From NCBI GenBank assembly GCA_963714695.1, contig CAVQPQ010000006.1:321971-385970 (forward strand): DNA of 64,000 nt, written 5' to 3'. Both the position numbers and the translations under genes were made by a program. Of the stretch, positions 7,187-58,697 are shown one piece after another. Numbering within the stretch: the first letter of the stretch is position 1; every line of letters begins with the position of its first letter. The notes beneath the pieces are model-generated. The model made no database searches. It was not told the origin of the DNA and saw nothing but the letters and a program-made list of their open reading frames with translations. Origin of the DNA: an uncultured Verrucomicrobiae bacterium (lineage in GTDB: Bacteria > Verrucomicrobiota > Verrucomicrobiia > Limisphaerales > UBA11358).

Positions 7187-8614
7187 CTAAACCACAATTT
7201 CCAATTCCTGCCAATGCGGAATCAGATCCTTTGCCCGCTTATGAACAAACTTCAATGTCGGCCAATAGAGATTGATTCCGCGACAATTTGAGGCGGATTT
7301 CTTTGAGGATCGAGATGGAAAATGAAAAATCGGTTTAAGAATTTCGGGCGTTGGTTTGGCCAGGACGCTGGCTGTCCCACAGGATCCCGCCAGATAGGCT
7401 TGTTGCGGCGTGCCCAGAAAGCGCCCTCCGCCATCGGCTGTCCCATAGCATATCAAGAGGCTGCGCAGTTCCAGTTTTTGCCAGAGGGCCGAGCGGATCA
7501 GTGCAAAGAGCCGGGTAAAGCTGTGGCTCCACTGGCCCAGGTGGGCGCAGAAACGCAGGAGCACATAGGCCAGGAGTGCCGTCCAGACTTGCCATTTGAC
7601 GGCGTTGGCGTTGTGGCCGAGGAAATCGGCCAGTTGCAGGGTCTGTTTGAGTTCCTTGAAAAAGACCTCGATGCTCCAGCGGCAGCGATAGAGGTCGGCG
7701 ATGGTCTGGGCGCTCCACTCCAGGTTGTTGGTCAGAAAGACCATTTCCCGCCATTGCCCGTCCACTTCGACGAGGGCGGTGACGCGGCGCAGTTCGACCG
7801 GATAAACGGCTTGCACCGCCGGATTGGTCAGGACGATCAGGTCATCCCGCAGAATGTTACCCTCCGTGCCGTCCTGAAACTTGCGCACGACCCGGCATTG
7901 CAAATTGTCCTTGGCGCGGGTGACCCAAAAGACGCCGCGCTGGGACAAGTCGGCGAGATGGGCAAAATCGAGGTAAGCCTTGTCGAAGATGACGATTTCA
8001 CCCGCTTGAACATTGGCGCAAAGCTCGCGTGCCCGCCGGTTGTCGTGCTCACCGGCGGTGGCCACGATGGCGCAGCGGGGCAGAAAGGTTTGCAGGTCGA
8101 GGCGGACATGACACTTGGCCGCAGCCTTGCGGCGGCGGTGCTTGGCCCAGTCCAGCGAGCGGGCCATCAGTTGGATGGTGGTGGAGTCCACGACATGGAT
8201 GAGGCGCTTGAAGCGGAAGGCGAACTTCGGGCGACGGTTGCCGCCGAAAGCGGGCTGCAAAGTTTGCAAATGTTCCAGCACCGCCCAGAACAGTTGCTCG
8301 GCCATTTTCGGATCGCGTCGGCGGTTGGCGTGCGAGAGCGTGTTTTTGGGCGGCGGCGTGGCCCCGCGCAGTGCCGACAACGACCCGGAGTGCAGCCGCA
8401 GGGCGTCGCAGACGTCATTGAGACCGAGGCTGTGGGTGAGTTGGGCATAAAGCAGACTGACGACGTGACTCCACGGACTGAAAGTGCGGGCTTGATCATC
8501 CACGCCGGTCTCGTGTGCCAGTCGCGGCACCAGATGCGGCGGAATGAAGTTGCAAAGTTGGCGCAACAGCGAGAATTTGCTGGCGGTTGGCTTGTGTCGT
8601 GTTTGATTTTTCAT
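7187..8614 (-). CDS. IS4-family DDE transposase
   Basis: 475 aa. Y-(2)-R-(3)-E-(6)-K signature present (YRCRWSIEVFFKELK). The last ~22 codons (7187-7252) run out of the element into flanking DNA. Confidence 0.85.
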   Translation of the reverse strand: MKNQTRHKPTASKFSLLRQLCNFIPPHLVPRLAHETGVDDQARTFSPWSHVVSLLYAQLTHSLGLNDVCDALRLHSGSLSALRGATPPPKNTLSHANRRRDPKMAEQLFWAVLEHLQTLQPAFGGNRRPKFAFRFKRLIHVVDSTTIQLMARSLDWAKHRRRKAAAKCHVRLDLQTFLPRCAIVATAGEHDNRRARELCANVQAGEIVIFDKAYLDFAHLADLSQRGVFWVTRAKDNLQCRVVRKFQDGTEGNILRDDLIVLTNPAVQAVYPVELRRVTALVEVDGQWREMVFLTNNLEWSAQTIADLYRCRWSIEVFFKELKQTLQLADFLGHNANAVKWQVWTALLAYVLLRFCAHLGQWSHSFTRLFALIRSALWQKLELRSLLICYGTADGGGRFLGTPQQAYLAGSCGTASVLAKPTPEILKPIFHFPSRSSKKSASNCRGINLYWPTLKFVHKRAKDLIPHWQELEIVV

Positions 8615-11938: not shown

Positions 11939-13636
11939 TTGGCCGTGGCGGACATCGTTTTAACCACGCTCAACGCGAAATACATCCACGCCGCATTCGG
12001 CCTGCGCTACCTGCTGGCCAATCTTGGCGACCTGCAACCGCGTGCTTGCCTTGTCGAATTCGACATCAACCAACGTCCGCTCGACATCGTGGAAGTGCTG
12101 CTGGCACGTGATCCCAAAATCATCGGCTTTGGCGTTTACATCTGGAACGTCGAGCCAACTGCCGAGATCATCGCCGCCATCAAACGCGTCCGGCCGGACA
12201 TCAAAATCATCCTCGGTGGGCCGGAGGTCAGCTACGAAATCGAGGAACAACAAATCGTTCAACTCGCCGACCACGTCATCACCGGTGAGGCGGATTTGAA
12301 GTTCGCGGAGGTATGCCGGACGCTATTGGAGCACCAGCCTACGGCACGGCTGCTTGAAAACGCTGGAGTTCGAGCTTCAGCTCGTTCGGATGGCACACTA
12401 AAGTGCGAACTCCAACACGCCGGGTCGGAGACCGGCGCTCCGCTGCCCAAAATCATCCCCGCCGAACTGCCTGACTTTTCCAAAATCGTTCTCCCCTACG
12501 ACCTTTACACCGATGACGACATCGCGCACCGCATCATCTATGTCGAGGCGTCGCGTGGGTGTCCGTTCACGTGCGAGTTTTGCCTGTCGTCGCTAGACAT
12601 TCCGGTGCGGCAGGTTCCCCTGCCCGCTTTGCTCGAACAATTGCAGCGGCTGCTGAATCGCGGGGTGAAACAATTCAAATTCGTTGACCGCACATTCAAC
12701 CTCAACGTGGATATCAGCAAAACCATTCTCGAATTCTTTCTGGCGCGCCATCAGCCCGGCCATTTCTTCCATTTCGAAATGATTCCCGACCGGCTGCCGG
12801 AAGCGTTGCGCGAAACCATCGCCAAATTCCAGCCGGGCGCGCTGCAATTCGAGGTGGGCGTCCAGACGTTCAACGAAGAAGTCAGCGAGGCCATCAAACG
12901 CCGGCAGAATTATGAACGGTTGGAGGATAATTTTTATTTTCTGCGCCACGAGACTGGCGTCCACATCCACACCGATTTGATTGTCGGGCTGCCGGGCGAA
13001 ACGCTGGAGAGTTTCGCCGCCGGATTCGATCGGCTGGTTGCGCTCGGCCCCCAGGAAATCCAAGTGGGCATTTTGAAACGGCTGCGCGGCACGCCGATTA
13101 TCCGGCACGATGCCGACTGGCAGATGGTCTATAATCTGCAGCCGCCCTACGATGTTTTGCAAAACAAGCTGATTGATTTCGCAACCATGCAACGGCTACG
13201 CCGGTTTGCTCGCTATTGGGACATGGTCGGCAACAGCGGCAATTTTGTAGAGTCCACACAATTGATTTGGTCCGTAGGACGGACGTCGCGCCTGTCTCCA
13301 TCTAAACCTGAAAAGAATGAGACCGGCAAGATGCCTGGCCCACGTTCCCCCTTCCACGTCTTTCTGCATTTCAGCGACTGGCTGCACGCACGCACGCGCC
13401 GCACTGACAGCTTTGCGCTGGTGCGGCTGATGGAACTGCTCTTTGAATATCTGACCGGCGAGCTGAAGCTGGACGCGAAACCGGTGGCCGAAACCCTCTG
13501 GCGCGATTACCAGCGCGGCGGCCGCCACGACAAACCAACTTTCCTGAAGGATTTTCTACCCACGGAAGAAAAAGTGATCCCGCTGCGCAAAGCCAAAACC
13601 GCCCTGCCCAAGCGCCAGGCCCGACATTTGTTGTGA
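11939..13636 (+). CDS. B12-binding-domain radical SAM protein (DUF4080-type)
   Basis: N-terminal B12-binding-like domain and the CxxxCxxC motif (CPFTCEFC). Contains in-frame elements at 12364-12414 and 13275-13343. Start is TTG 11939 or GTG 11945. Confidence 0.85.
12364..12414 (+). repeat. palindromic element, family A, in frame in the radical SAM gene
   Basis: TGGAGTTCG...CGAACTCCA termini. Translated as [17 protein letters not shown]. Copies at 28392-28441 and 47858-47908. Confidence 0.85.
13275..13343 (+). repeat. palindromic element, family B, in frame in the radical SAM gene
   Basis: GTAGGACGGACGTCGCGCCTGTCTCCATCT...GAGACCGGCAAGATGCCTGGCCCAC. Translated as [23 protein letters not shown]. 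Same frame and orientation as the copy at 30022-30089. Confidence 0.8.
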
Positions 13637-23542: not shown

Positions 23543-23570
23543 GGTGACAGGTGACAGGTGACAGGTGACA
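23543..23570 (+). repeat. (GGTGACA)x4 tandem heptamer array, left arm of cassette
   Basis: Four perfect units starting 8 nt after the parB stop. Reverse complement of the array at 23969-23996. Confidence 0.9.
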
Positions 23571-23965
23571 AGAAAGAAAGCAAACCGGCAGATTCTTACG
23601 ATCGGTTGGAGTCTTTCGGCATCTACCAACTCGCCCGCCAGCTTTTCGGTGATTTTTGGAATGATTCAGGAATACTAAGCAAAGATTTTCGCGGACGAGA
23701 ATTGGTCAAACAACAGGTCCGCAGCCTGGATTCCGTTTGTGCGAATATGGAGGAAGGTTTTGGCCGTGGTTTTGGTAAGGAATTACCGCAACATCTAAAA
23801 ATCTCCCGTAGCGAAGCAAGAGAAAGTCGAGGCCGATACGAACGGTGCAATCGCCTGCTTCCGCCTGAAACCATTGCACAACGGGTTTCCGCCCTGAGCC
23901 GCATTATCGGCGGTCTGAGCAAAACCATTCAAACCATTGAGAGTCGCGCCCGCCGGCAGCCTTGA
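23558..23965 (+). CDS. four-helix-bundle protein (23S rRNA intervening-sequence protein family, TIGR02436/PF05635-like)
   Basis: 135 aa. Family pattern seen in YQLARQL...FRGRELVKQQVRSLDSVCANMEEGFGR...L.ISRSEARESRG. The GTG start lies inside the left heptamer array. Confidence 0.75.
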   Translation: MTGDKKESKPADSYDRLESFGIYQLARQLFGDFWNDSGILSKDFRGRELVKQQVRSLDSVCANMEEGFGRGFGKELPQHLKISRSEARESRGRYERCNRLLPPETIAQRVSALSRIIGGLSKTIQTIESRARRQP

Positions 23966-23968
23966 TCT

Positions 23969-23996
23969 TGTCACCTGTTACATGTCACTTGTCACC
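23969..23996 (+). repeat. TGTCACC-type heptamer array, right arm of cassette
   Basis: TGTCACC TGTTACA TGTCACT TGTCACC, the inverted complement of (GGTGACA)x4 with three substitutions. Ends 5 nt before the def start. Confidence 0.9.
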
Positions 23997-26652: not shown

Positions 26653-27903
26653 ATGATTCTTCGCGCCCGCACACTTTTGCCGGTCTCGCAACCGCCCATT
26701 GACAATGGCGCGGTGCTGGTTTCTGGAAATCGCATTCGCGCGGTGGGTTTCTGGCTGGATTTGCGGACGCGTGCGAATGAAAAAATTCTCGACCTCGGCG
26801 AAGTCATCCTGCTTCCCGGCCTCATCAACGCCCACTGCCACCTCGACTACACCGACATGGCGGGAATGCTGCCGCCGCCGAAAACATTCACCGACTGGAT
26901 CCCGCTCATCCTTTCCGCCAAATCCGGCTGGGGCTATTCCGACTACCTGCGTTCCTGGCTGAACGGCGCGCGGATGCTGGAGCGCACCGGCACCACCACG
27001 GTCGCCGACATTGAAATCGTGCCCGACCTTTTGCCGGACATTTGGGACGCCACGCCGCTGCGGGTCTTTTCGTTCCTCGAAATGACCGGCATCCGTGCCC
27101 GGCGCAATCCCACAGAAGTGCTCCATGAAGCTGTCGAAAAAATGGATTCACTTTCGCACCCGCGCTGCTCCGCCTCGCTTTCGCCGCACGCCCCCTACTC
27201 CACCGTGCCCGCGCTGCTGGAACTCAGCGCCGAAGCCGCGCGCGAACGCGGGCAGCGGCTGTGCGTTCATGTGGCGGAATCCGCGGAGGAGTTTGAAATG
27301 TTCATGCGCGCGAGCGGCCAAATGTACAACTGGCTGCAGCGCAATGAACGTGATTTGTCCGATTGCGGCCTCGGCTCGCCGATCCAGCACCTCGCCCGCC
27401 ACCAGACGCTCGGCAATAATCTGCTCGCCATCCACGTCAACTGCCTCGCGCGCGGCGATGCCGCGTTGCTGGGCCGGCGCGGCGTTCACGTGGTTCATTG
27501 CCCGCGCAGCCACGATTATTTCCGCCACCCGCCGTTTTTGCGCAAACGACTGGCCAACGCCGGCGTCAATCTCTGCCTCGGCACCGACAGCCTGGCCACC
27601 GTTCGCAAAACCAGGAAACAAAACCCCGAACTCAGCATGTTCGACGAAATGCGCGAGTTGGCAGCCAACGATCCAAAACTTCCGCCAGTGGAAATAGTGC
27701 GCATGGCCACGGTCAACGGCGCGCACGCGCTAGGCCGGGCCGGCCAGATCGGTGAGCTTTCTGAAAATGTCCTGGCCGATTTGATTGCCATCCCCGCCAG
27801 CGCAAAACCCAGCGAGGCTTGCGAAGCCGTGCTGGCTCACGACGGCCCGGTGAGCGCCAGCATGATTGACGGGGATTGGGTCATTCCACCGCAAAGCTCG
27901 TGA
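26653..27903 (+). CDS. amidohydrolase family protein (chlorohydrolase/nucleoside deaminase-like)
   Basis: 416 aa. PGLINAHCHLDYT metal-binding motif and HV..S/HC motifs. The exact substrate cannot be called. Confidence 0.75.
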   Translation: MILRARTLLPVSQPPIDNGAVLVSGNRIRAVGFWLDLRTRANEKILDLGEVILLPGLINAHCHLDYTDMAGMLPPPKTFTDWIPLILSAKSGWGYSDYLRSWLNGARMLERTGTTTVADIEIVPDLLPDIWDATPLRVFSFLEMTGIRARRNPTEVLHEAVEKMDSLSHPRCSASLSPHAPYSTVPALLELSAEAARERGQRLCVHVAESAEEFEMFMRASGQMYNWLQRNERDLSDCGLGSPIQHLARHQTLGNNLLAIHVNCLARGDAALLGRRGVHVVHCPRSHDYFRHPPFLRKRLANAGVNLCLGTDSLATVRKTRKQNPELSMFDEMRELAANDPKLPPVEIVRMATVNGAHALGRAGQIGELSENVLADLIAIPASAKPSEACEAVLAHDGPVSASMIDGDWVIPPQSS

Positions 27904-29108
27904 ACAATTTCGACCGGGAATTGACTGAACGACTTGAAGCCTTGAGTGCACAAGGCTTGCGCCGCGAACTGCGCCGTGTGGATTCGCCAACCGGCACGCG
28001 CATCCAAATCGGCTGCCGGATGCTGCTGAATTTTTCATCCAACGATTATCTCGGCCTTGCCAACGATCCAGTTTTAAAAGATGCGGCAATCAAAGCCGTG
28101 GAAAAATTCGGCGCTGGTGCCGGCGCGTCCCGGTTGATTTGTGGTTCGCTCGCGCCGCATCATAAACTGGAAGAGGCCCTCGCCAGTTTCAAAAACGCCG
28201 ATGCCGCGCTGAGTTTCTCGACCGGCTACGCCACCGCCATTGGTACCATCTGCGCGTTGCTCGGCAAAGATGACGTGATTGTCTTGGACAAACTCGTTCA
28301 CGCCTGCATCGTGGACGCCGCCCGGCTCAGCGGCGCGAAAATCCGTGTCTTCGCCCACAACGATTTGGATGACCTGGAGAAAATTCTCCGTTGGAGTTCA
28401 ACCTTTAGGCTGCCTGTCAACACGCTGAAGCGTGAACTCCAACCACCGCGCACGCTCATCGTAACTGAAAGTATTTTTTCGATGGACGGCGATGTTGCGC
28501 CATTGCGCGAAATCGTGGCGCTCAAGGAAAAATACGGCGCGTGGCTGATGGTGGACGAGGCGCACGCCACCGGGCTTTACGGAAAAAACCGTCGCGGCCT
28601 GACGGAAGAATCCGGCGTGAGCGGCCAGATCGAAGTTCAAATGGGGACGCTGGGCAAGGCGGTGGGGGCTTCGGGCGGTTACATTTGCGGCTCGCGTCCA
28701 TTGATTGATTTTCTCATCAACCGCGCCCGCAGTTTCATTTTCAGCACCGCGCCCGTCCCGGCCGCCGCCGCCGCCGCCACCGCCGGCATTCGCCTTATTC
28801 AATCGAAAGCTGGAGCCGACCGCCGGGACAGACTTTTTGAGCGTATCAACGAATTGAATCCGCAATCCGCAATCCGCAATCCGCGATTAAAGAGCGCCAT
28901 CATCCCGGTTCTAATCGGCGACGAATCTAAAGCGGTTGCGGCTTCCGCCGCGTTGCGCGAGCGGGACATTTTTGTTCCCGCGATTCGTTATCCGACCGTG
29001 GCCCGTGGCAAGGCGCGTTTGCGTGTAACCGTGACCGCTAACCACACAACCGAAGAGATCAAACTGCTCGCCGCCACGCTGAACGAAATCGTAAATCGTA
29101 AATCGTAA
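27900..29108 (+). CDS. bioF: 8-amino-7-oxononanoate synthase
   Basis: LNFSSNDYLGL and the SMDGD...DEAHATG...GTLGKA PLP-lysine region. GTG 27900 overlaps the upstream stop (GTGA) and gives an N-terminal length like known BioF. ATG 27876 is the alternative start. Confidence 0.85.
   Translation: MNNFDRELTERLEALSAQGLRRELRRVDSPTGTRIQIGCRMLLNFSSNDYLGLANDPVLKDAAIKAVEKFGAGAGASRLICGSLAPHHKLEEALASFKNADAALSFSTGYATAIGTICALLGKDDVIVLDKLVHACIVDAARLSGAKIRVFAHNDLDDLEKILRWSSTFRLPVNTLKRELQPPRTLIVTESIFSMDGDVAPLREIVALKEKYGAWLMVDEAHATGLYGKNRRGLTEESGVSGQIEVQMGTLGKAVGASGGYICGSRPLIDFLINRARSFIFSTAPVPAAAAAATAGIRLIQSKAGADRRDRLFERINELNPQSAIRNPRLKSAIIPVLIGDESKAVAASAALRERDIFVPAIRYPTVARGKARLRVTVTANHTTEEIKLLAATLNEIVNRKS
28392..28441 (+). 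repeat. palindromic element, family A, in frame in bioF
   Basis: TGGAGTTCA...TGAACTCCA. Translated as WSSTFRLPVNTLKRELQ. Confidence 0.85.
28857..28884 (+). repeat. (AATCCGC)x4 tandem heptamer array inside bioF
   Basis: Four perfect units followed by GATTAA. Translated as NPQSAIRNPR. A related array lies at 29422-29442 in bioA. Confidence 0.85.
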
Positions 29109-29113
29109 ATCAA
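29086..29113 (+). repeat. (AAATCGT)x3 + AAATCAA heptamer array spanning the bioF stop codon
   Basis: Encodes the last residues (EIVNRKS*) of BioF. Inverted counterpart at 31127-31154. Confidence 0.85.
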
Positions 29114-29121
29114 AAACCGAG

Positions 29122-30648
29122 ATGCACCCGCTCGCCAAACTTGATCATGAGTTCGTCTGGCATCCCTTTACCCAGATGCGCGACTGGCTGAAGCGCGATC
29201 CGGTGGTCATTGTCGCGGGCAAAGGCGCGGTTTTGCGCGACGTGCATGGACGTGAATATCTCGATGCAAATTCTTCCATCTGGACGAATCTGCACGGCCA
29301 TAATCATCCGAAGATCAACACCGCCATCCAGCGGCAACTTAAAAAAATCGCACACTCCTCGGCACTCGGCTTGGCAAATGAACCAGCGAGCCTGTTGGCG
29401 GAAAAACTGCTCCGGGCAGCCAATCCGCAATCCGCAACTCCGATTAATCGCGAGCACGCGACGAAAGTCGGTGTCGAGAATCGCAAATTCACAAAAGTAT
29501 TTTTCAGCGATGATGGTTCGACGGCACTCGAAGTAGCCCTCAAGCTCGCCTACGAATTTACGCGGCGCACCCGGAGTGGGGACAACCGGCCCGCAAGTCG
29601 CCGTCGAAGCGAACCACGTTTTTTCTCCCTCGAACGCGCGTATCACGGCGACACTGTCGGCGCGGTTTCGGTTGGCCACATAGATTTGTTTCACAAAAGT
29701 TATTCCGGTTTGCTGTTCAAGACGGACAAGGTCATGTCGCCATATTGCTATCGGTGTCCGTTCAATCGCGCAAAGCCGGAGCGCGCCGACGCCCGTGAAT
29801 ATCGCAAATGCGACTGGGAATGCGTTGGCTTGGTGGAAAAGAAATTCGCCGCGCAAAAACGAAAGGGAAATTCCTACGCGGCGTTCGTCTTCGAGCCGTT
29901 GATTCAAGGCGCTGCCGGAATGATCCCGCAGCCGTCCGGCTGGCTGCGGCGGGCAACCGAAATCGCCCGCGGCCACGGCGCGCTGCTCATCGCGGACGAA
30001 GTCATGACCGGATTTGGCAGAGTAGGACAGACATCTTGCCTGTCTCCATCTTCAAAACAAATTAGAGACAGGTTGGAAGCCTGTCCTACGTTGTTTGCCT
30101 GTCAGCATGAAAATGTGCAGCCGGATTTTCTGTGCCTGGCCAAGGGCCTGACCGGCGGTTACCTGCCCATGGCGGCGACCTTGACGACGCAAAAAGTATT
30201 CGATGCCTTTCTGGGCGAATACGGCGAATTTAAAACCTTTTTCCACGGCCACAGTTACACGGCCAATCAGCTCGGCGCGGCGGCGGCACTGGCGAGCCTG
30301 GATATTTTGCAAAACGACAAATCCATTCGCACGCGGAAAAATCTCGAAAAGAATTTGCACGACGAATTGCAGACGCTCTGGTCGTTGCCCAACGTCGGCG
30401 ACATCCGGCAGGTTGGTTTGATTGCCGGCATCGAGCTGGTGAGGAACTGGCGGACGCGCGAGCCGTTTGATTTGCGCGAACGCGCGGGCATTCGCGTTTG
30501 CGAGGCAATGGCGCGGCGCGGCGTGCTCACGCGGCCCGTTGGCAACGTCATCGTGCTGATGCCGCCCTATTGTACGACGCCAACGCAAGTTGGGAGGATG
30601 GTGCGCGTCGTTTTTGATTCAATCCGCGAAGTTTTTGGCCGCCGGTAG
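29122..30648 (+). CDS. bioA: adenosylmethionine-8-amino-7-oxononanoate aminotransferase
   Basis: 508 aa, class-III aminotransferase motifs (ADEVMTGFGR, CLAKGLTGG). About 70-80 aa longer than typical BioA because of repeat-derived insertions. Confidence 0.9.
   Translation: MHPLAKLDHEFVWHPFTQMRDWLKRDPVVIVAGKGAVLRDVHGREYLDANSSIWTNLHGHNHPKINTAIQRQLKKIAHSSALGLANEPASLLAEKLLRAANPQSATPINREHATKVGVENRKFTKVFFSDDGSTALEVALKLAYEFTRRTRSGDNRPASRRRSEPRFFSLERAYHGDTVGAVSVGHIDLFHKSYSGLLFKTDKVMSPYCYRCPFNRAKPERADAREYRKCDWECVGLVEKKFAAQKRKGNSYAAFVFEPLIQGAAGMIPQPSGWLRRATEIARGHGALLIADEVMTGFGRVGQTSCLSPSSKQIRDRLEACPTLFACQHENVQPDFLCLAKGLTGGYLPMAATLTTQKVFDAFLGEYGEFKTFFHGHSYTANQLGAAAALASLDILQNDKSIRTRKNLEKNLHDELQTLWSLPNVGDIRQVGLIAGIELVRNWRTREPFDLRERAGIRVCEAMARRGVLTRPVGNVIVLMPPYCTTPTQVGRMVRVVFDSIREVFGRR
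29422..29442 (+). repeat. AATCCGC AATCCGC AACTCCG heptamer array inside bioA
   Basis: Followed by ATTAATCG, as in the bioF copy. Translated as NPQSATP. Confidence 0.8.
30022..30089 (+). repeat. palindromic element, family B, in frame in bioA
   Basis: GTAGGACAGACATCTTGCCTGTCTCCATCTTCAAAACAAATTAGAGACAGGTTGGAAGCCTGTCCTAC. Translated as VGQTSCLSPSSKQIRDRLEACPT, between GFGR and LFAC. Confidence 0.9.
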
Positions 30649-31126: not shown

Positions 31127-31154
31127 ATTTGCGATTTGCGATTTGCGATTTACG
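31127..31154 (+). repeat. (ATTTGCG)x3 + ATTTACG heptamer array
   Basis: Inverted complement (with A/G differences) of the AAATCGT array at 29086-29113. Sits in the 43-nt divergent gap between the EVE gene and yggS. Confidence 0.85.
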
Positions 31155-31162
31155 ATAACAGC

Positions 31163-32737: not shown

Positions 32738-32817
32738 CTTGGGAGCGCTGCCGTCCCGGCTGCGAGTTGATAGATGGACTTTTCGAGAGTTGCCGGCGGG
32801 ACGCCGGCGCTCCCAGG
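32738..32817. repeat. palindromic element, family E
   Basis: CTTGGGAGCGCTGCCGTCCCGGC ... GCCGGCGGGACGCCGGCGCTCCCAGG. Same architecture as 2273-2350. Confidence 0.8.
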
Positions 32818-33204: not shown

Positions 33205-33225
33205 ACCGCGAAACCTGCGAAGAAA

Positions 33226-33357
33226 AATGACTAAATCCTAAATCCGAATGACGAAAGAAATCCCAATGACCGAATAACGAATTAATCGTCCGGGGAAATG
33301 ATTTGTCATTGGGATTTCGTCATTCTTTAGTCATTTGGCCTTCGTCATTAGTCATTT
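33226..33357. repeat. long imperfect hairpin element, family G (GTCATT/AATGAC-rich)
   Basis: AATGACGAAAGAAATCCCAATGAC pairs with GTCATTGGGATTTCGTCATT, with further AATGAC / GTCATT units at both ends. Related copies at 49413-49546 and 50141-50254. Confidence 0.85.
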
Positions 33358-33363
33358 CCCCTC

Positions 33364-34284
33364 TCAAAACCCCTCCGGCACTCCAAATATTTTTGCCCAA
33401 TTGGCCTGGCCCAGCACCACCCCGATGATGATCAAAGCCATGGCCGTCCAAAACGTGGGCGTGACCGGCTCCTGCAAAAAGAACCACGCCCAGCCCATCG
33501 TGCTCAACGGAATGAGATTGTTGAACAGCATGACCTGGCTCGTGCGCCAATGCCGGAGCGCGTCATTCCAGAGCGCATAGGCAATCACGCCGCCGAACAC
33601 GATGCAAAACGCCAGCACACCCAGAATTCCGCCGGTGATGGGAATGCCGCGCGTGAAATAAATCTCGGCCAGCCCAAACGGCATGAGCGCAATCCCCGAC
33701 ATCCACATCGTGTGCGCCGCGACCTCCGCCCCGCTCAAAGTGGCGCTGAGAATTCGCATTTGATGGCTGAATGTCGCCCACAAAATGCTCGCGGCCAGTC
33801 CAAGAAACTCGCCGAACAGGTCCATTTTTGCCGTTTGCAGCGCCGGCCAGAACAAAACCAGCACGCCGGCCAGCGCGAGCAACGCCGCTCCGTAACGCCG
33901 CGCACTGGCCCACGTCCGCTGCGGCCGTTCTTCCCACAACAACGTCCACACGGGCGACGCGCCGAGATACAACGCCACGTGCGAAGCGGCGGTCAGGCGC
34001 AAGGCCCAGTTAAAGGCGACGATATATATCGACAGACACAACCCACCGCGCCACCACAACTGCCGGCGCAGTCCGGAGGTCAACGGGCGATATTCACCGA
34101 GCCACGAAGTGAAGCGCAGCACCGCCAGCAAAAGCAGCCCGGCCAGGAGAAAGCGGATGCCGCCGGTCCAGATGGGCGGCCACGCGGCAACCAGCCACTT
34201 GGTCCCCGCGTTATTGCCGCCCCACAGAAAAATCACGAACAGCAAGCTGGCGGCGGTAACAGCGTTATTTTTTGGATGCGACAC
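33364..34284 (-). CDS. DMT-superfamily (EamA-like) transporter
   Basis: 306 aa, about ten TM helices in two EamA-type halves. Confidence 0.85.
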   Translation of the reverse strand: MSHPKNNAVTAASLLFVIFLWGGNNAGTKWLVAAWPPIWTGGIRFLLAGLLLLAVLRFTSWLGEYRPLTSGLRRQLWWRGGLCLSIYIVAFNWALRLTAASHVALYLGASPVWTLLWEERPQRTWASARRYGAALLALAGVLVLFWPALQTAKMDLFGEFLGLAASILWATFSHQMRILSATLSGAEVAAHTMWMSGIALMPFGLAEIYFTRGIPITGGILGVLAFCIVFGGVIAYALWNDALRHWRTSQVMLFNNLIPLSTMGWAWFFLQEPVTPTFWTAMALIIIGVVLGQANWAKIFGVPEGF

Positions 34285-34404: not shown

Positions 34405-34867
34405 TTACTTGAACACCTGTTTCTCATTATCGAAAAAAACATCCTTTCCCTTTACCTCAACTTTATTAAACAAATTTGTTTCTTGCTCCATTTTTGTGTA
34501 TTTTAGAATGAAGACTGCATTTTGGGGATATTCCGGCAAATCCCATTGAGCAGCGCGCAAAAAAAAATGCGATATTTTTATTATTCCCAACACCAAGTGA
34601 TATTTCTTTGGCATATGGAGAACCCACAATTAGCCCCAAAAGCCCCCTAATTAGTCCTGGGTGCGATTGCTCAATGGCTTGAATGCTATTGGCGACTGGG
34701 ACATATTTTAGCTTGAGGAAAATTCGCGTGTGACTCCAATGCACGTTTTGAACCGTTACGCGGCTTGTGTCGGAGATGGGAAATATTTCAACAACTACTC
34801 GTGAGTATAGACCATTTATTAATGATTCAACATCAATGTCGGCCAATAGAGATTGATTCCGCGACAA
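34405..34867 (-). other. AT-rich islet with two overlapping ORFs joined through an A9/T9 homopolymer
   Basis: ORFs 34466-34867 and 34405-34629 (different frames) both cross the A9 run at 34559-34567. Loss of one A/T would fuse them. The only Met start of the longer ORF lies inside the IS fragment, so the gene may be 5'-truncated. Confidence 0.3.
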
Positions 34868-34967
34868 TTTGAGGCGGATTTCTTTGAGAATCGAGATGGA
34901 AAATGAAAAATCGGTTTAAGAATTTCGGGCGTTGGTTTGGCCAGGACGCTGGCTGTCCCACAGGATC
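34834..34967 (-). mobile_element. solo terminal fragment of the IS4-family element
   Basis: 134 nt matching 7253-7386 with one mismatch. Begins exactly at the IS terminus and stops abruptly at the rhodanese ATG. Confidence 0.9.
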
Positions 34968-40407: not shown

Positions 40408-40434
40408 GCAGGACAGGTGTCGCGCCTGTCCCAC
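40408..40434. repeat. half-copy of palindromic element family B
   Basis: GCAGGACAGGTGTCGCGCCTGTCCCAC. Intergenic. Confidence 0.6.
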
Positions 40435-40503: not shown

Positions 40504-41481
40504 ATGAACCCGATTAAACCGGTGACAACTCGTCCGTTGGAAATCAACGTGGTCGAACCCATCAGCCCGGCGCTGGAGCGGGTGAAGGGCATGTTGTTCC
40601 GGCCATTCGATCTGGGCAAATGGTTCGTCATCGGCTTTTGCGCGTGGCTGGCTTGTTTGGGGGAAAGTGGAGGGTCTGGTTTCCATGTCCCCGGCGGCAG
40701 TGGACGCAGTGGCGGCGGTGAAAACTTCCGGCATGAGTTCGAGCACGCCAAAGACTACATCTTGAATAATCTGGGTTGGATTGTTCCATTGGCGGCGGTG
40801 GTGGTGGTCGTTGGTTTGGGACTTTGGCTGCTCTTCCTGTGGCTCAACAGCCGGGGCAAATTCATGTTCCTCCATTGCGTGGCGCTCGACAAGGCAGAGG
40901 TCGCAAAACCGTGGAGCCAGTTCGCGATCGAGGGAAACAGCCTGTTCCTGTTTCGGCTGGGGCTGGGACTGTTCGGCTGGGTGCTCACCTTGCCGCTGGT
41001 GGTGATAATTGCCGTGATGATTTTCAGGATGGTGCAACATGGCGAGCCTGACGTCGGCGGCATATTCGGCGCGGTTGGCCTTGGGCTGGTGCTGATTACG
41101 GTGGCCGTGGTGTTTGCCATCATCCACAAATTCACCACGGATTTTGTGGTGCCGATCATGTTTCTGCGGCGCACCCGGTGCCTGACCGCCTGGAAAGAGT
41201 TGTGGACGCTGCTTTCGTTCCATGCGGGCCAGTTCATCCTGTATCTTCTATTCTCCATCGTGCTGGCGATGGCGATTGGCATGATGGTTGTGATGGCCAT
41301 GATCGTAACGTGCTGTTTCTGTTGCATGATGCTCCTGCCGTACGTGGGCACGGTGGTGGTGTTGCCCGTGCTAGTGTTCAAGCGGTCGTACTCGCTCTAT
41401 TTTCTGGCGCAGTTTGGCCGGGAGTACGATGTGTTCCCGCCAACCGCTCCGCCAGCTCCAGCCACGCCGCCAGCAATATGA
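40504..41481 (+). CDS. polytopic membrane protein, unknown function
   Basis: 325 aa, five to six TM helices, Cys-rich last helix, Pro-rich tail. Confidence 0.55.
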   Translation: MNPIKPVTTRPLEINVVEPISPALERVKGMLFRPFDLGKWFVIGFCAWLACLGESGGSGFHVPGGSGRSGGGENFRHEFEHAKDYILNNLGWIVPLAAVVVVVGLGLWLLFLWLNSRGKFMFLHCVALDKAEVAKPWSQFAIEGNSLFLFRLGLGLFGWVLTLPLVVIIAVMIFRMVQHGEPDVGGIFGAVGLGLVLITVAVVFAIIHKFTTDFVVPIMFLRRTRCLTAWKELWTLLSFHAGQFILYLLFSIVLAMAIGMMVVMAMIVTCCFCCMMLLPYVGTVVVLPVLVFKRSYSLYFLAQFGREYDVFPPTAPPAPATPPAI

Positions 41482-41530
41482 GGCAGCTTTGCGATTGCCA
41501 ATCGCCGGCTGGCCTGTTATTCATTTCCCC

Positions 41531-41597
41531 GGCAATGGAGTTTGCCATTCCCGCATGGGAAAACCGCCTGACTGTATCAGCGCTGATGACTCCTACC
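41531..41597 (+). promoter_or_regulatory. fluoride riboswitch (crcB RNA motif)
   Basis: GGCAAUGGAGUUUGCC ... AAACCGCC ... GCUGAUGACUCCUACC matches the conserved crcB-motif core, including the GGAGU/ACUCC pseudoknot. An extra small hairpin UCCCGCAUGGGA is inserted after P1. Located 40 nt upstream of crcB. Confidence 0.85.
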
Positions 41598-41636
41598 GAT
41601 GCCCGTTAATTCGCGGTCATTGGCAGGAGTATTTTT

Positions 41637-44718: not shown

Positions 44719-44860
44719 TGATGTTTTACTGCACCCATTTCTTGCTTTTGGCTGCGAGGGGGTTAAACTTTAAGCAGGCAATGGGGTTTGCCTCCCGCAC
44801 GCGGAAAAACGCCTTCCGGCTAATAACTCCTACCAAAACAAAATGAAATGGTAGTGGGTT

Positions 44861-46099: not shown

Positions 46100-46197
46100 G
46101 CCGCCAGGGCCCATGGAATGTGGACTTACGAACCCCGCCAGGGCCGGAAGGCAGCAACGGTAGTTTGCTCCGTATCTGCCGTGGTCACCCTGGCATT
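46100..46197 (+). ncRNA. ffs: signal recognition particle RNA (small 4.5S type)
   Basis: CAGGGCC-GGAA-GGCAGCA matches the conserved domain IV apex (consensus CAGGUCC-GGAA-GGAAGCA). The outer stem GCCAGGG (46103-46109) pairs with CCCUGGC (46188-46194), and CCAUGG pairs with CCGUGG. Positioned directly upstream of dnaX. The ends are approximate. Confidence 0.7.
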
Positions 46198-46274
46198 TTT
46201 TAATTTTGAGTTTTTAATTTTGAGTTTTAAGTTCCTCTGCTTCAACTTAAAACTTAAAATTTAAAACTAAAAAT
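46195..46274. repeat. inverted heptamer-array hairpin (TTTTGAG/TTTTAAG versus CTTAAAA)
   Basis: TTTTTAA TTTTGAG TTTTTAA TTTTGAG TTTTAAG - loop - CTTAAAA CTTAAAA TTTAAAA CTAAAAA. Lies between the SRP RNA and dnaX. Confidence 0.85.
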
Positions 46275-46277
46275 TCC

Positions 46278-48056
46278 GTGTCTTATCAAGTCATCGCCAG
46301 AAAATACCGCCCGCAGCGGTTTGCCGACGTGGTCGGGCAGGAACACGTTACCCAGACGCTCGCCAACGCCATCGAGCAGAAACGCATCGCGCACGCCTAC
46401 CTGTTCTGCGGCCCGCGCGGCACGGGCAAGACCACCATCGCCCGCATTTTTGCCAAATGCCTGAATTGCACCGGCGGCCCGAAAACCGCCTTCGACGACC
46501 TGGATTCGCGCTGCATTGAAATTGCCGAGGGCCGCTCGCTCGACGTTCTGGAAATTGACGGCGCCAGCAACAACGGCGTCGAGCAGGTCCGCGAACTCCG
46601 CGAAACGTGCAAGTACGCGCCCGCCAATTCACAGTTCAAAATCTACATCATTGACGAGGTCCACATGCTCTCGACGGCGGCGTTCAACGCGCTGCTCAAG
46701 ACACTCGAAGAGCCGCCGGCGCACGTGAAGTTCATGTTCGCCACGACCGACCCGGAGAAGGTTTTGCCAACCATCCTTTCGCGCTGCCAGCGATTCGACC
46801 TGCGCCGGATTCCCTCCGCGCTCATCACCAAACACCTCGCCCACGTCGCAAAACAGGAAAAGGTAAAAATTGACGAGGCGGCGCTCCACGCCATCGCCCG
46901 CGGCGCGGATGGCGGCATGCGCGACGCCGAATCCACGCTCGACCAGTTGATTAGTTTTTGCGGCGACAAAATCGAGGAAGCCGACGTGCTTTCCATGTTC
47001 GGTCTGGCCGCGCAAAGCCAGATTCTCGGTTTGAGCCAGGCCGTCCTGGCCGGTGAAATCCAGACCGCGCTTACCGAACTAAGCGAACTCGCGCAAAACG
47101 GCAAAGACCTTGGCCGCCTGCTCTCCGACCTGTTGAATCATTTCCGCAACCTGCTCATTTTCCAGGTGGCGCGCGGCGATCTGAACTTGCTCGAAGTGTC
47201 CGAAGCCGAAGTCGCGGCGTTGAAAGAACAGTCAGGGCTGGCCGACACTGCGACCCTCACGCGAATCCTCGAAGTGCTGACCGATGCCGAACTTCGGCTG
47301 CGCGACATTTCATCCAAGAAAATCCTGCTGGAAGTCGCGATGCTCAAGGCCATCGAGGCGCGCAACGCCGTCAGCCTCGATGCCGTCCTGAAACATCTCA
47401 ACCAATTGCGCGGCGGCCAAAGTAGCGCGGGCATCCCGCCGGCGCCTGCGGCATCCGTCCCGGTAGAGCGCCGGGCCCCGGCCCGGCTCGAAACGGAGGG
47501 GCCAAAAACCGTCCACCCGCTGGCCGGGGCGGTGCCCGGCGCTCCTGCTGCTTTGGCCGAAACATCGCCGGTGTCGGACAATCTGGCCGGGTTGTGGACC
47601 AGGCTGATTGAAGCCGTTGGTCGCGTCAGCCCTTTCACGCGGAGTTATCTCGTGGACGCCAATCCGGTTTCGTTCGACAAAAACCTGCTCACGATTGGCT
47701 TCGATCCCGAATTTGCCGACCATCTCGGCCTGGTGGACAACGCACGCAACCACACGTTGCTCCAGACCAAACTGGCCGAACTCGGCCACGCAGACGCGCA
47801 GATCAAATTCGTAAAAGTTGAAGCGTCTGCGGCAACCACGAAGCAAAACGAGGGCGTTGGAGTTCAAGCTTCAGCTTGTTCGGCAGACACGTTAAAGCGT
47901 GAACTCCAACCAGCCAAACCAGTTGCGGCGACGGCACCCGCCGCAAAGGGAAAACCGGTGTCCGCCCCCTTCAACAAAAATGATTTCAAAAACGACCCAT
48001 TGATTCAAAAAGCTCTGGAAATTTTCAAAGGCCAGATTGTGGAAGTCCGCGCCTGA
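46278..48056 (+). CDS. dnaX: DNA polymerase III subunit gamma/tau
   Basis: 592 aa, Walker A GPRGTGKTT, zinc module CxxC, SRC motif. In-frame family A element at 47858-47908. Confidence 0.95.
   Translation: MSYQVIARKYRPQRFADVVGQEHVTQTLANAIEQKRIAHAYLFCGPRGTGKTTIARIFAKCLNCTGGPKTAFDDLDSRCIEIAEGRSLDVLEIDGASNNGVEQVRELRETCKYAPANSQFKIYIIDEVHMLSTAAFNALLKTLEEPPAHVKFMFATTDPEKVLPTILSRCQRFDLRRIPSALITKHLAHVAKQEKVKIDEAALHAIARGADGGMRDAESTLDQLISFCGDKIEEADVLSMFGLAAQSQILGLSQAVLAGEIQTALTELSELAQNGKDLGRLLSDLLNHFRNLLIFQVARGDLNLLEVSEAEVAALKEQSGLADTATLTRILEVLTDAELRLRDISSKKILLEVAMLKAIEARNAVSLDAVLKHLNQLRGGQSSAGIPPAPAASVPVERRAPARLETEGPKTVHPLAGAVPGAPAALAETSPVSDNLAGLWTRLIEAVGRVSPFTRSYLVDANPVSFDKNLLTIGFDPEFADHLGLVDNARNHTLLQTKLAELGHADAQIKFVKVEASAATTKQNEGVGVQASACSADTLKRELQPAKPVAATAPAAKGKPVSAPFNKNDFKNDPLIQKALEIFKGQIVEVRA
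47858..47908 (+). repeat. palindromic element, family A, in frame in dnaX
   Basis: TGGAGTTCAAGCTTCAGCTTGTTCGGCAGACACGTTAAAGCGTGAACTCCA. Translated as GVQASACSADTLKRELQ. Confidence 0.9.
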
Positions 48057-49412: not shown

Positions 49413-49546
49413 AATGACGAATGACGAAACCCTGATGACTAAAAAATGCCAAATGCCGAATTTCAAAATACCCGTGGCTGCCGGGAATAATTCGTCATTG
49501 GGTTTTAGTCATTCTTTCGTCATTCGAGCTTAGTCATTCGTCATTC
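49413..49546. repeat. long imperfect hairpin element, family G
   Basis: Starts AATGACG AATGACG and ends GTCATTC GTCATTC. Fills the entire ybaB-recR gap to the nucleotide. Confidence 0.85.
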
Positions 49547-49547
49547 C

Positions 49548-50156
49548 ATGTCCGTTCTTCCCGAATCCATTATCGCGCTGATTTCCGCGCTGAGCAAGCT
49601 GCCCGGCGTCGGGCCGCGTTCCGCGGAGCGCATCGCCTTGCATCTGGTCCAGGCTGATTCGGCGGAGGTGAAACAACTGGCGGATATCATTGTTCACGCC
49701 CGCGAGAAAATTCATTTTTGCACCGCCTGCGGCGCATTGACCGAAAAATCCCCCTGCCCGATCTGTGACGATGCCCGGCGCGATGTGTCGTTGGTGTGCG
49801 TGGTCGAGCACGCGGTGGACATTTTGAGCGTTGAAAAATCCGGCGCCTACCGCGGCAAATTTCACGTGCTTGGCGGAAAAATATCCCCGCTCGACGGCGT
49901 GGAGCCGGAGGACCTGCGCATCGCTGAATTGGAAAAACGGCTGGCGCGCGAGCCGGTCAGAGAAATCATCATTGCGCTGGGCACGGACGTGGAAGGCGAC
50001 GCGACGAGTTTCTATCTGGCCAAACGGCTGGCGCGCGAAGGACTTAAAATTTCCCGCATCGCCTATGGTTTGCCCGCAGGGAGCGGTTTGGAATTTGCTG
50101 ACGAACTGACTTTGAGCCGCGCACTGGAGGGGCGGCGAGAAATGACCGGCGAATGA
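49548..50156 (+). CDS. recR: recombination protein RecR
   Basis: 202 aa, HhH motif (LPGVGPRSAERIA), C4 zinc finger, Toprim domain. Confidence 0.95.
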   Translation: MSVLPESIIALISALSKLPGVGPRSAERIALHLVQADSAEVKQLADIIVHAREKIHFCTACGALTEKSPCPICDDARRDVSLVCVVEHAVDILSVEKSGAYRGKFHVLGGKISPLDGVEPEDLRIAELEKRLAREPVREIIIALGTDVEGDATSFYLAKRLAREGLKISRIAYGLPAGSGLEFADELTLSRALEGRREMTGE

Positions 50157-50254
50157 CCCATGACGAAACCATAATGACCAAATGGCGTATGGATTGTGTT
50201 TCGTCATTTGAGCTTGGTCATTCCTTCGTCATTCGGATTTAGGCATTAGACATT
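50141..50254. repeat. long imperfect hairpin element, family G
   Basis: AATGACCGGCGAATGACCCATGACGAAACC ... TTTCGTCATTTGAGCTTGGTCATTCCTTCGTCATTCGG. Its first 16 nt encode the RecR C-terminus. Confidence 0.8.
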
Positions 50255-55840: not shown

Positions 55841-55923
55841 TCCACGTAGCGGCGTCTCGGCAGAGCGCCGCCATATTCTTGAAATCAGCATGGCGGGTGC
55901 ATGCTGAAGCCGTATCCATGGCG

Positions 55924-56054
55924 CAGGACAGGCATCGCGCCTGTCTCTAAAATCATAAAACCACGGCATTTCGATGAAGGGGTGCCGCCACGAATTTCCA
56001 CCCATCAGCGAGTGAAATGGATGAAGATGGAGACAGGCGCGACGCCTGTCCTAC
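55924..56054. repeat. family B element with expanded (~80 nt) central loop
   Basis: CAGGACAGGCATCGCGCCTGTCTC (55924-55947) and GAGACAGGCGCGACGCCTGTCCTAC (56030-56054) are the two hairpin halves seen contiguously in the 68-nt copies. Confidence 0.6.
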
Positions 56055-57458: not shown

Positions 57459-57512
57459 CCGGACGTATTGAACCACAAACCAAACAACCCACACGAAAAG
57501 GAAACCAGACAC

Positions 57513-58697
57513 ATGAAAACCAACCGCACATTCAAAAGTCAACTCGCCGCCGCTTTGCTGCTCGCGGCGAGTCAACTCTTCACCGCCCGTGCCTTGGGCA
57601 ACCCACCGCAACCCGGCACGCCCACGCAAATCGAAATGCCCACGCCCATTTCCTACGCGCCGTTCACCATCAAAGCGCCGGGGTCGTATTATCTGACGGG
57701 GAATCTTACCGTGCATTCCGGCAACGCCATCACCATCGCCACCAACGGCGTGACGCTGGATTTGAACGGCTTCACCATCTCCTCCACCGCCCCCAGCGCG
57801 GCGGGCACGGCGATTTTGCTGAACAACGGGTTGCACAATATCACCATCCTGAACGGATTCATCCAGAGCGGCGTGACGGACAACGGCAGCGGCGTTTATC
57901 AAGGCAGCGGCTTCGCCTCTGGAATTTCTTGGCTCGTCAACGCACCTGTCAATGTACTGACGAACGTGGTGGTCACCAAGGTGTCCGTTATGGGTGTTTT
58001 AGATAATGGCATTTTCCTCGGTATTGGAAACGGGACGATAGTGGAAGCTTGCACGGTGACGACTGCGGGAGGCTATGGCATTGTCGCCAGCATCGTTAAA
58101 GACTCGGTGGCGAACGACTGTGGCAGCGACGGCATTTATGGCGATCAAGCGGTTGATTGCCGGGGAACATCCTTTGATAATGACGGTATTGAAACCACCG
58201 ACTCCGCGCAGAATTGTGTCGGCGTAAGCACCGGCGCCATGGGTATTTACACCTCTACCGCGCAGAACTGTCGCGGCTTTAGCAGTAGTGGCACGGGTCT
58301 TACCGCCGATACCGCGCTGAACTGTGAAGGCGATAGTGGCAGTAACTGTGGATTGGCAGCATATCAGGCGCTGAACTGTGACGGCGGCAGCGAAAGCGGC
58401 ACAGGTCTTAGCGCCTTAAATTTTGCGCAGAATTGTTACGGATCGAGTAGCAGTGGCACGGGTCTTTTCGCCCAATGGATTGCGCAGAATTGTTACGGCT
58501 ATAGCTACAGTAGCACAGCAATGGATGTCCTTTACATGGCCAACTTTAGCGTGGGCATCAGCTCATCCGGCACGGGGTTGTCCGCTTTCATCGCCAACTC
58601 TTGCTGGGGCTCTGGCAGCACGGGGTTGACTGCCACTTATGGCAACTTCTGCTTTGGCAGTACGGTTTCCGTGACCACCAAATACAACATGCCGTAA
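57513..58697 (+). CDS. secreted parallel beta-helix-like repeat protein with Cys-containing ~19-aa repeats
   Basis: The internal Met gives a signal peptide (MKTNRTFKSQLAAALLLAASQLF). The N-terminal half is beta-helix-like and the C-terminal half carries about 8 repeats of AQNC.G.S.SGTGL. Confidence 0.55.
   Translation: MKTNRTFKSQLAAALLLAASQLFTARALGNPPQPGTPTQIEMPTPISYAPFTIKAPGSYYLTGNLTVHSGNAITIATNGVTLDLNGFTISSTAPSAAGTAILLNNGLHNITILNGFIQSGVTDNGSGVYQGSGFASGISWLVNAPVNVLTNVVVTKVSVMGVLDNGIFLGIGNGTIVEACTVTTAGGYGIVASIVKDSVANDCGSDGIYGDQAVDCRGTSFDNDGIETTDSAQNCVGVSTGAMGIYTSTAQNCRGFSSSGTGLTADTALNCEGDSGSNCGLAAYQALNCDGGSESGTGLSALNFAQNCYGSSSSGTGLFAQWIAQNCYGYSYSSTAMDVLYMANFSVGISSSGTGLSAFIANSCWGSGSTGLTATYGNFCFGSTVSVTTKYNMP

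Follow-up and report, generated by a model that had tools for sequence, protein, structure and literature searches.

A GTAG-headed REP doublet in frame within bioA of an uncultured Verrucomicrobiae bacterium, at a loop site with probable rapid turnover of repeats

The bioA gene of an uncultured Verrucomicrobiae bacterium of the order Limisphaerales contains, in frame, a 68-nt palindromic element which is a doublet of repetitive extragenic palindromic (REP) sequences with a GTAG head. The gene lies on contig CAVQPQ010000006.1 of assembly GCA_963714695.1, in a stretch of 64,000 nucleotides (positions 321,971 to 385,970 of the forward strand) which is here called the window and to which coordinates refer unless a locus is named. 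In related species the same bioA codon holds about 40 unrelated inserts, and the residues at this position number from 3 to 40 across 80 species. Taken together, the evidence favours, with a probability of roughly 0.8, a GTAG REP doublet that is translated as part of BioA and resides at a permissive-loop site with rapid turnover of repeats. The gene and the element are located as follows.

29122..30648, plus strand: bioA, encoding adenosylmethionine-8-amino-7-oxononanoate transaminase, 508 aa, intact (assigned from TIGR00508, an AlphaFold model and the structural match to 3du4_A)
30022..30089, plus strand: REP doublet (REPIN-like), 68 nt, in frame in bioA (assigned from its sequence, uniqueness and fold)
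30022-30046, 30047-30064 and 30065-30089: left arm, spacer and right arm of the element

The element reads GTAGGACAGACATCTTGCCTGTCTCCATCTTCAAAACAAATTAGAGACAGGTTGGAAGCCTGTCCTAC, with the termini GTAGGACAG on the left and CTGTCCTAC on the right, exactly as described in an earlier note on this DNA that was made from the letters alone. It is composed of two inverted 25-nt units and an 18-nt spacer; the canonical unit has one extra base per side (C...G), and the bioA copy has A at 30021 and G at 30090. The pattern GTAGGACAG-N50-CTGTCCTAC occurs once in the window and in none of 100 dinucleotide shuffles. With 10 nt of flanking sequence per side, the element folds into a single long hairpin (-38.2 kcal/mol, z = -5.9). 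The two internal hairpins which the note had proposed do exist, since each 25-nt arm alone forms a small hairpin (-6.8 and -10.3 kcal/mol), but they are the weaker alternative, the two-hairpin form reaching -17.1 kcal/mol against -31.6 kcal/mol for the single long hairpin. A scan of Rfam returned no family matching at the element.

The identity of the host gene is well established. The open reading frame (ORF) 29122..30648, directly downstream of bioF (27876..29108), scores 443.8 bits against TIGR00508 (cutoff 405), and its product has the class III aminotransferase fold together with the lysine and aspartate that bind pyridoxal phosphate (PLP). Within it the element is read as VGQTSCLSPSSKQIRDRLEACPT, 23 residues (301-323) which stand for the 'TGK' of Bacillus subtilis BioA (3dod) between GFGR and (M/L)FAC, with a net length change of +20 aa. 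The alignment to 3dod and the TIGR00508 match agree with the in-frame position between GFGR and LFAC that had been reported, and matches to hidden Markov models (HMMs) break at 303/304 and resume at 323/324. The insert starts one residue after Arg300 and nine after Asp292, and ends 17 before the PLP lysine, Lys341; Arg300 and Asp292 presumably correspond to Arg253 and the PLP-binding Asp245 of the Escherichia coli enzyme. In a diverse alignment Asp292 is invariant and Lys341 is conserved in at least 90% of sequences.

The structure prediction of the 508-aa protein that the earlier note had suggested was carried out with this diverse alignment, as 51 close homologues (77-87% identical) had yielded an unusable model, with a predicted local distance difference test (pLDDT) score of 40.7. 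The resulting model has a pLDDT of 91.4 and a predicted template modelling score (pTM) of 0.92, and superposes on B. subtilis BioA (3du4_A) with a template modelling (TM) score of 0.94 (target-normalised) and a root-mean-square deviation of 2.3 Å. Low confidence is limited to residues 101-120, 151-160, 211-230 and 301-320, the last of which is the insert; its pLDDT is 62-67, and that of the flanking residues is 91-98. The fold is predicted to be intact, with the insert as a low-confidence excursion, presumably a flexible extra surface loop which the enzyme tolerates. The view that the insertion falls in conserved core and not in a permissive loop found no support: the flanks GFGR and LFAC are invariant, yet the position between them is hypervariable among the 80 species and of low predicted confidence.

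A further segment of BioA, rich in cysteine and including the low-confidence stretch 211-230, was observed at residues ~208-234 (window 29740-29820, YCYRCPFNRAKPERADAREYRKCDWEC). It has four Cys in two pairs, is absent in B. subtilis BioA and present in the Methanocaldococcus enzyme (6zhk), has an AlphaFold confidence of 66-70, and may be a metal-binding knuckle.

Orthologues were compared across 80 species-level Limisphaerales genomes (bioA loci L001-L080). The closest 120 BioA proteins (77-87% identical), from metagenome-assembled genomes of Limisphaerales and other Verrucomicrobiota, all have extra residues at the site, of many kinds. The site is empty in 8 of the 80 genomes (L010, L013, L019, L035, L043, L047, L052 and L058), where TGK, TGS, TGN or TGT is followed by (L/T/I/H)F(A)(C/S/G). 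On a broader scale, a library clustered at 50% identity supplied its 150 best BioA representatives, in 97 of which the site could be located; exactly three residues are found there in 82 of the 97, and inserts are confined to sequences with Limisphaerales-type flanks. The alignments thus bear out both the insertion point and the lineage specificity proposed beforehand, no comparable segment having appeared in unrelated taxa of this sample, and they point to the lineage-specific insertion of a dispersed palindromic repeat.

The unit of the family consists of GTAG and a 9-bp stem, with the consensus CGTAGGACAGGCGTCGCGCCTGTCTC, which folds at -14.8 kcal/mol. It is present at four loci in the window, those other than bioA being the following.

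13274..13343, plus strand: second in-frame doublet of the same family, 70 nt, more decayed, in the DUF4080 domain of a B12-binding radical SAM protein (ORF 11939..13636)
55923..56054, no strand assigned: long-form doublet of the same family, 132 nt, two inverted REP units with an 82-nt spacer, the right unit being the 23-nt family consensus
40408..40434, no strand assigned: solo REP unit of the same family, GCAGGACAGGTGTCGCGCCTGTCCCAC, just upstream of the DUF7544 gene 40504..41481

The copy in the radical SAM gene had been placed at 13275-13343; it is in frame as stated, but it starts one base earlier and has 70 nt. When its 24 residues are removed, the DUF4080 match is extended from 393-443 (43.5 bits) to a continuous 393-518 (53.1 bits), which identifies it as a true in-frame insertion. 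The frame is indeed shared by the two copies; however, this agreement in frame and orientation carries little weight, because palindromic arms have the same reading on either strand, and the TAG in GTAG closes one of the three frames.

Beyond the window, exact matches to the 23-nt consensus were sought in metagenome contigs and at least 120 stretches were found. Those listed include 95 inverted doublets and 42 singletons, with doublet sizes clustering at ~70 and ~131 nt, and 68% of copies have a C at position -1, which belongs to the unit itself. Two of the loci, L094 and L200, hold between two doublets an ORF of ~217 aa with the motifs HVHVLV and YVQENP. It matches the NCBIfam entry 'REP-associated tyrosine transposase' (NF047646; E 5.6e-18, 65 bits, curated cutoff 80) and the Pfam family Y1_Tnp (PF01797; 24.6 bits, gathering score 23), and it has more than 5,000 homologues in Opitutales, Pirellulales and neighbouring phyla, many of which are named RayT by the Joint Genome Institute. 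It is known that GTAG-tagged REPs, and the REP doublets termed REPINs, are mobilised by RAYT tyrosine transposases (PMC3733652; Bertels & Rainey 2011, PMC3116915). The present family resembles them in its short (20-40 bp) imperfect palindrome with a GT[AG]G head at the 5' end, in its many dispersed copies and in its inverted doublets. Since the same unit also flanks a RayT-like ORF, on other contigs, the family appears in structural terms to fit the definition of a REPIN/RAYT system, and it is presumably mobilised in this genome by a RayT-type tyrosine transposase.

The RayT-like gene itself lies at ~11186-11984 of L094 and ~6977-7790 of L200, and in both a single 980-aa open frame passes through the doublets and covers the whole stretch. 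Many RayT homologues in the protein database appear fused to D-Tyr-tRNA deacylase (PF02580+PF01797); these fusions are probably gene calls running through an in-frame REP.

The occupants of the bioA site in other species are diverse. They include GTAG- and GTGG-headed REP doublets (with the heads GACAGGC, CGCAGGC, GCCGGGC, CCGCGC, CTGCGAAC and GAGACGACG), further palindromes such as GGGAGGGCGAGCGTCC... and TTTGGAGTTCCGCC..., inverted arrays of 7-8-nt repeats, and plain tandem heptamers. Most inserts of at least 60 nt fold at -37 to -83 kcal/mol, and no shared hairpin was found at the empty sites (minimum free energy -1.5 to -10 kcal/mol). Many of the inserts match non-orthologous places in the fetched loci and are therefore dispersed repeats; some types (TGVTCHVDD...) are without matches elsewhere in these loci, and may be old, decayed inserts. 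In L073, a locus labelled as the cultured relative Pedosphaera parvula Ellin514, the insert has 40 aa.

The site is not the sole variable region of the enzyme. Outside three regions, at query residues ~103-114 (0-66 aa), 151-160 (0-22 aa) and 303-321, 81 BioA proteins align without gaps, and the three coincide with low-confidence loops of the AlphaFold model (pLDDT 64-65 at loop 1 and 71 at loop 2, in addition to the insert). The alignments suggest that repeats land recurrently at the bioA site, which belongs to the three loops of this clade's BioA that are permissive. The two other loops, and an element of another family in the adjacent bioF, are found at these positions.

29422..29493, plus strand: BioA hypervariable loop 1, residues ~101-124, 0-66 aa, with repeat-derived peptides
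29572..29619, plus strand: BioA hypervariable loop 2, residues ~151-166, 0-22 aa, recognised from length variation among orthologues
28395..28448, plus strand: in-frame element of a different repeat family in bioF (27876..29108), read as SSTFRLPVNTLKRELQPP, left arm decayed

The bioF element, of which further copies lie at 12361-12421 and 47855-47915, sits at the single hypervariable loop of BioF, where 70 relatives hold 8-48 aa of unrelated repeat-derived peptides. BioF itself scores 421.7 bits against TIGR00858, the cutoff of which is 426.45.

Several other repeats of the window were recorded alongside. The radical SAM/DUF4080 gene contains two in-frame repeats of two families (12361-12421 and 13274-13343). 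Inverted heptamer arrays, ATCGTAA / TTTGCGA, bracket the bioA-EVE gene pair at 29088-29116 and 31128-31156, with 2011 nt between them; one array reaches into the C-terminus of BioF (…EIVNRKS), the other into the N-terminus of a YggS-like gene (MRFAIYD…), and in other species BioA loop 1 is filled by the peptide of this same heptamer (IYDLRFTIYD…NRKL). A palindromic family, TCCTGGGAGCGCCGGCGTCTCGCCGGC / its complement, with 96% complementary arms, is present at 2272-2351 and 32792-32817, and peptides with its signature, SAGVPPA…, occupy the bioA site of L018 and loop 1 of L001. Intergenic palindromes formed by inverted 7-8-nt arrays (AATGACG…, AATTTTGAG…, GGTGACA…) were seen at 33216-33366, 49413-49545, 50152-50254, 46202-46275 and 23543-23996; sequence of this kind fills the bioA site in L011, L042, L056, L064, L073 and L078.

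Turnover at the site is evident from genes that are otherwise nearly alike. The pairs L008/L009 and L029/L036 carry unrelated inserts despite identities of 96.3% and 95.4% outside the loops. Their flanking DNA is 97-100% identical except in the last 15-30 nt to the left of the insert, where synonymous differences cluster (4 in 15 nt in the first pair, 7 in 30 nt in the second). Moreover, the loops conflict with each other: at loop 1, L029 equals L031 and L036 differs, while at the bioA site L031 equals L036 and L029 differs. The near-identical insert of L031 and L036 is followed by a right flank that is 78% identical over 120 nt. Such conflicts are best explained by short-patch exchange between lineages on top of repeated insertion. 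Units are also clustered or nested: the radical SAM site of L091 has three REP units in place of two, and L066 and L049 contain nested palindromes, which indicates that occupied sites gain further repeats. The inserts were clustered automatically into 47 states, for which a Fitch count on a neighbour-joining tree yielded at least 57 changes; these figures are indicative only, L002 and L044 having been misclassified as empty by a looser pattern.

The hot spot might instead be mutational in origin and not the outcome of a selection filter, a possibility which we regard as real though doubtful. The bioA codon would then be a true landing pad to which several palindromic families home, for instance by inserting beside or within a hairpin or REP that is already there, or with the help of microhomology to the native GGC-AGG-ACA-GGC. 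Such homing would account for unrelated inserts in orthologues that are 95-96% identical, for a site that is empty in only 8 of 80 genomes, and for the clustered and nested units at one site in L091, L066 and L049; furthermore, the REP head GTAGGACAGGC, in the second open frame of the element, equals the native G-R-T-G and overlaps those codons in L012, L016 and L020. However, no conserved target motif or duplication surrounds the 95 listed doublets, the empty sites have no hairpin in common, and tandem heptamers without transposase-like ends occupy the site too. The restriction of BioA length variation to three low-confidence loops is what a selection filter predicts, and the mosaic patterns point to recombination that shuffles existing alleles.

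The arms of the element were compared among 11 orthologous bioA copies (the window, L001, L004-L006 and L201-L206), which is a small sample. Their mean identity is 91%, and 84% at third codon positions, compared with 82% and 64% for the surrounding coding DNA (480 nt); of 55 pairwise comparisons, 50 show a higher identity in the arms than in the flanks, and the spacer drifts. The terminal pairs co-vary, GTAG/CTAC being replaced by GCAG/CTGC in L006 and by GTGG/CCAC in L201 and L206, and RNAalifold detected compensatory change in 5 of 24 pairs. As far as these sequences tell, the arms are constrained beyond the need of the protein, and this could be due to hairpin or transposase-recognition constraints, or to homogenisation with other copies of the family.

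It is improbable that the hairpin is selected in bioA for a function of its own in DNA or mRNA, such as mRNA stability, pausing or supercoiling. Arms more conserved than synonymous sites of the flanks, compensatory pairs and the strong folding of most inserts of at least 60 nt would all be in keeping with a function of this sort. Arm conservation, however, is expected in any repeat family kept uniform by a transposase or by gene conversion, and the same family occurs in many unrelated genes. The insert is lacking in eight species, and in many others it is short and forms no hairpin; the sequence, length and stability of the inserts vary widely among close relatives.

The bioA frame is intact in the 80 orthologues and in the window, and 73 of these genes (72 orthologues and the window's own) carry an insert. 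Every insert has a length divisible by three and is free of stop codons, although the ~40 sequences are unrelated and extend over 6-120 nt. Spacer length varies in steps of 3 nt only, in 12 aligned copies of the window-type insert, and the frame that contains TAG is used in none of the 44 intragenic doublets among those listed. The same family also occupies the bioA site of L012, L016 and L020, where it is read in its other open frame (gGT AGG ACA GGC = G-R-T-G; G-R-T-G-V-A-P-V-S). A preserved frame, 3-nt steps and an unused TAG frame favour translation, and none of them would be needed if the segment were excised or bypassed; simple in-frame translation, which the earlier note had preferred while naming removal or bypass as a formal alternative, is the best reading of these sequences.

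RNA excision or ribosomal bypass, either of which would leave the protein without the insert, is accordingly very unlikely. The strong hairpin is about the size of the gap in phage T4 gene 60, and the two systems have in common a hairpin-forming segment of 50-70 nt within coding sequence; moreover, the metatranscriptome matches are only from relatives or from other copies of the element. Unlike in gene 60, there is no stop codon at or after the take-off site, there are no matched take-off and landing codons, and the frame is open in every orthologue, so that programmed translational bypass of the T4 type was rejected. In addition, a metatranscriptome contig joins the left flank of a relative's bioA to its own, different insert, of a TCAACCC-repeat type (loose end at 30017), and the transcript of this relative thus keeps its insert.

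An inactivated or redundant bioA, in which an insertion is tolerated as the gene no longer matters, has slighter chances still: a second intact bioA, to which the earlier note had drawn attention, was looked for in the 64 kb of the window and is absent there, and against that restricted coverage stand an ORF intact in 80 species with invariant catalytic Asp, Arg and Lys, a conserved bioF-bioA arrangement, a TIGR00508 score above the cutoff with a confidently predicted BioA fold, and the inheritance of the same insert across orthologues with ~18% flank divergence. Short-read assemblies are known to be broken or mis-joined at such repeats, but chimerism in the metagenome-assembled genome can be dismissed, since bioA with the element was recovered from four soil or peat metagenome assemblies (four runs of four different studies) in which both junctions are spanned with 0-1 differences and empty-site joints are lacking, and orthologous copies occupy the same codon in ten other assemblies.

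We infer that the hot spot has its cause in the interplay of three processes, within the following sequence of events. The family is dispersed through Limisphaerales genomes and would be mobilised by a RayT-type transposase, and one copy lies at the turn after GFGR, where Thr-Gly-Lys is replaced by 23 residues. The element would be transcribed and translated with bioA and would form a flexible loop on an intact, functional enzyme, whose three loops are occupied in different species by different palindromic or short tandem repeats. Turnover would result from repeats arriving at a very high rate, with survival only of those insertions that are in frame, lack stop codons and fall in tolerant loops, from the clustering of new repeats at sites already holding one, and from the exchange of short DNA patches between related lineages. 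Inside the gene the element would stay a 'live' repeat, its arms being held at the nucleotide level while the spacer drifts.

A number of observations weigh against a translated doublet at a loop of rapid turnover. The insertion does not look clean, as nine native bases (Thr-Gly-Lys) are gone or have been overwritten, and the length of 68 nt cannot be divided by three. Around the 95 listed doublets there is no target motif, target-site duplication or palindrome extension. RayT motifs were searched for in the 80 bioA loci and in the window and are absent from both; what connects the family to a transposase is an ORF on other contigs, of uncertain exact taxonomy, whose NCBIfam score is below the cutoff. 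In two metatranscriptome runs 4% of words were found, and the contigs belong only to relatives or to other copies of the element. The neighbour-joining tree used for mapping the inserts is a weak phylogeny. Finally, a selection filter alone may not explain differing occupants in genes that are 96% identical.

REPs have been described as mostly extragenic, but the doublets of this family are about half intragenic, near the random expectation. Among those listed, 44 of 95 (46%) are located inside open frames with at least 80 codons on each side, against 53.5% of 4,000 random 70-nt windows from the same contigs, and the family hence hardly avoids genes. Their hosts include hisC, pheS, argS, uvrC and purM, which score above curated cutoffs, and, read by eye, ileS, dnaE, an Hsp70-type chaperone, protoporphyrinogen oxidase, prmC and hrpB; the long frames in L088 and L145 resemble antisense artefacts. 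A predominantly extragenic distribution, usually counted among the features of REPs, is therefore not found here. It is a descriptive and not a mechanistic criterion, since intragenic GTAG REPs are documented (PMC3733652).

The closest precedent comes from Di Nocera et al. 2013 (PMC3733652), who defined the GTAG- and CGTC-tagged REP superfamilies. In the verrucomicrobium Opitutus terrae they reported ~70 intragenic GTAG REPs, many of which are in DNA replication and repair genes and more than half of which are dimers or groups encoding 20-30 aa. The O. terrae example VGPALAAGREQRARLPAAGERPPY starts with VG, as does the bioA insert, but the two units are of different families, and the hosts named there do not include bioA. 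An in-frame GTAG REP is thus already known as a kind; what appears to be new is the occupation of one hot spot by many families and the turnover there. Within a limited search, no report was found of a single codon holding dozens of unrelated repeats, of rapid turnover between near-identical genes, of near-random placement of doublets with respect to genes, or of arm conservation in coding sequence.

The parallel with Rickettsia palindromic elements (RPEs) drawn in the earlier note holds as an analogy. According to Ogata et al. 2000, as cited in PMC3733652, RPEs are palindromic repeats in frame in functional Rickettsia housekeeping genes, and the bioA element likewise adds a peptide in a tolerant part of such a gene. 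There is, however, no sequence relationship: RPE-4 and RPE-6 of R. conorii, which have been equated with CGTC REPs (PMC3733652), are CGTC-tagged, and the element is GTAG-headed. The hosts differ as well, the one being an obligate intracellular alphaproteobacterium with a reduced genome and the other a free-living soil member of Verrucomicrobiota with many co-resident repeat families. Membership in the RPE families was rejected on account of the head and the verrucomicrobial host; the element behaves like an RPE but is not one.

A further likeness is to enterobacterial bacterial interspersed mosaic elements (BIMEs) and REP clusters, and to REPs as targets of insertion sequences, in that repeats pile up at a locus and the occupants of orthologous sites differ. 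Those sites are intergenic, whereas the bioA site is a codon in an enzyme, whose occupants must be open frames with a length divisible by three. Two other classes were considered and rejected. A miniature inverted-repeat transposable element would have terminal inverted repeats and a target-site duplication, but a direct flank repeat is absent in 78 of the 94 listed doublets that have both flanks and there is no consistent duplication. An intein would have at least 130 aa and splice residues, and the insert has 23 aa and no Pfam or NCBIfam domain.

By itself, the element is another in-frame REP doublet, as in O. terrae and, by analogy, in Rickettsia. A wider and more tentative proposal is that permissive loops of Limisphaerales housekeeping enzymes, most clearly the GFGRTG|LFAC turn of BioA, may be genuine landing pads at which unrelated families are preferentially inserted, clustered and exchanged, the loops acting as cassettes of fast turnover. 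If so, REPINs would live about as readily inside as outside genes, under nucleotide constraint, which would overturn the 'extragenic' view, and repeat insertion would be a major source of protein loop evolution in a free-living bacterium. What lends the element weight is its context, in which a REPIN-like family of a soil lineage is placed in genes about as often as random positions are, its hosts including tRNA synthetases, UvrC and enzymes of purine and histidine synthesis, and in which a single BioA codon has had some 40 different occupants in 80 species. Nature thus supplies an experiment with replicates that bears on which enzyme loops can take up 5-40 additional residues, on how selfish repeats manage to persist when both hairpin and reading frame have to be kept, and on what share of protein length variation in such genomes is due to mobile repeats. 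In practical terms, gene callers and HMM cutoffs split or under-score such genes, as is the case for BioF, which falls below its cutoff.

Other features of the window were noted in passing. A direct repeat of 146 nt, 97% identical and AT-richer than its surroundings, is found at 7241-7386 and 34822-34967, 27.6 kb apart. The ORF 57468..58697 encodes a repeat-containing protein with five tandem copies of a 48-nt unit at 58206-58529, spaced by 54-57 nt with one gap of 108 nt. Above the Rfam gathering scores, the window also contains two fluoride riboswitches (41522-41602 and 44768-44839), a small signal recognition particle RNA (46102-46198) and a tRNA (62555-62627).

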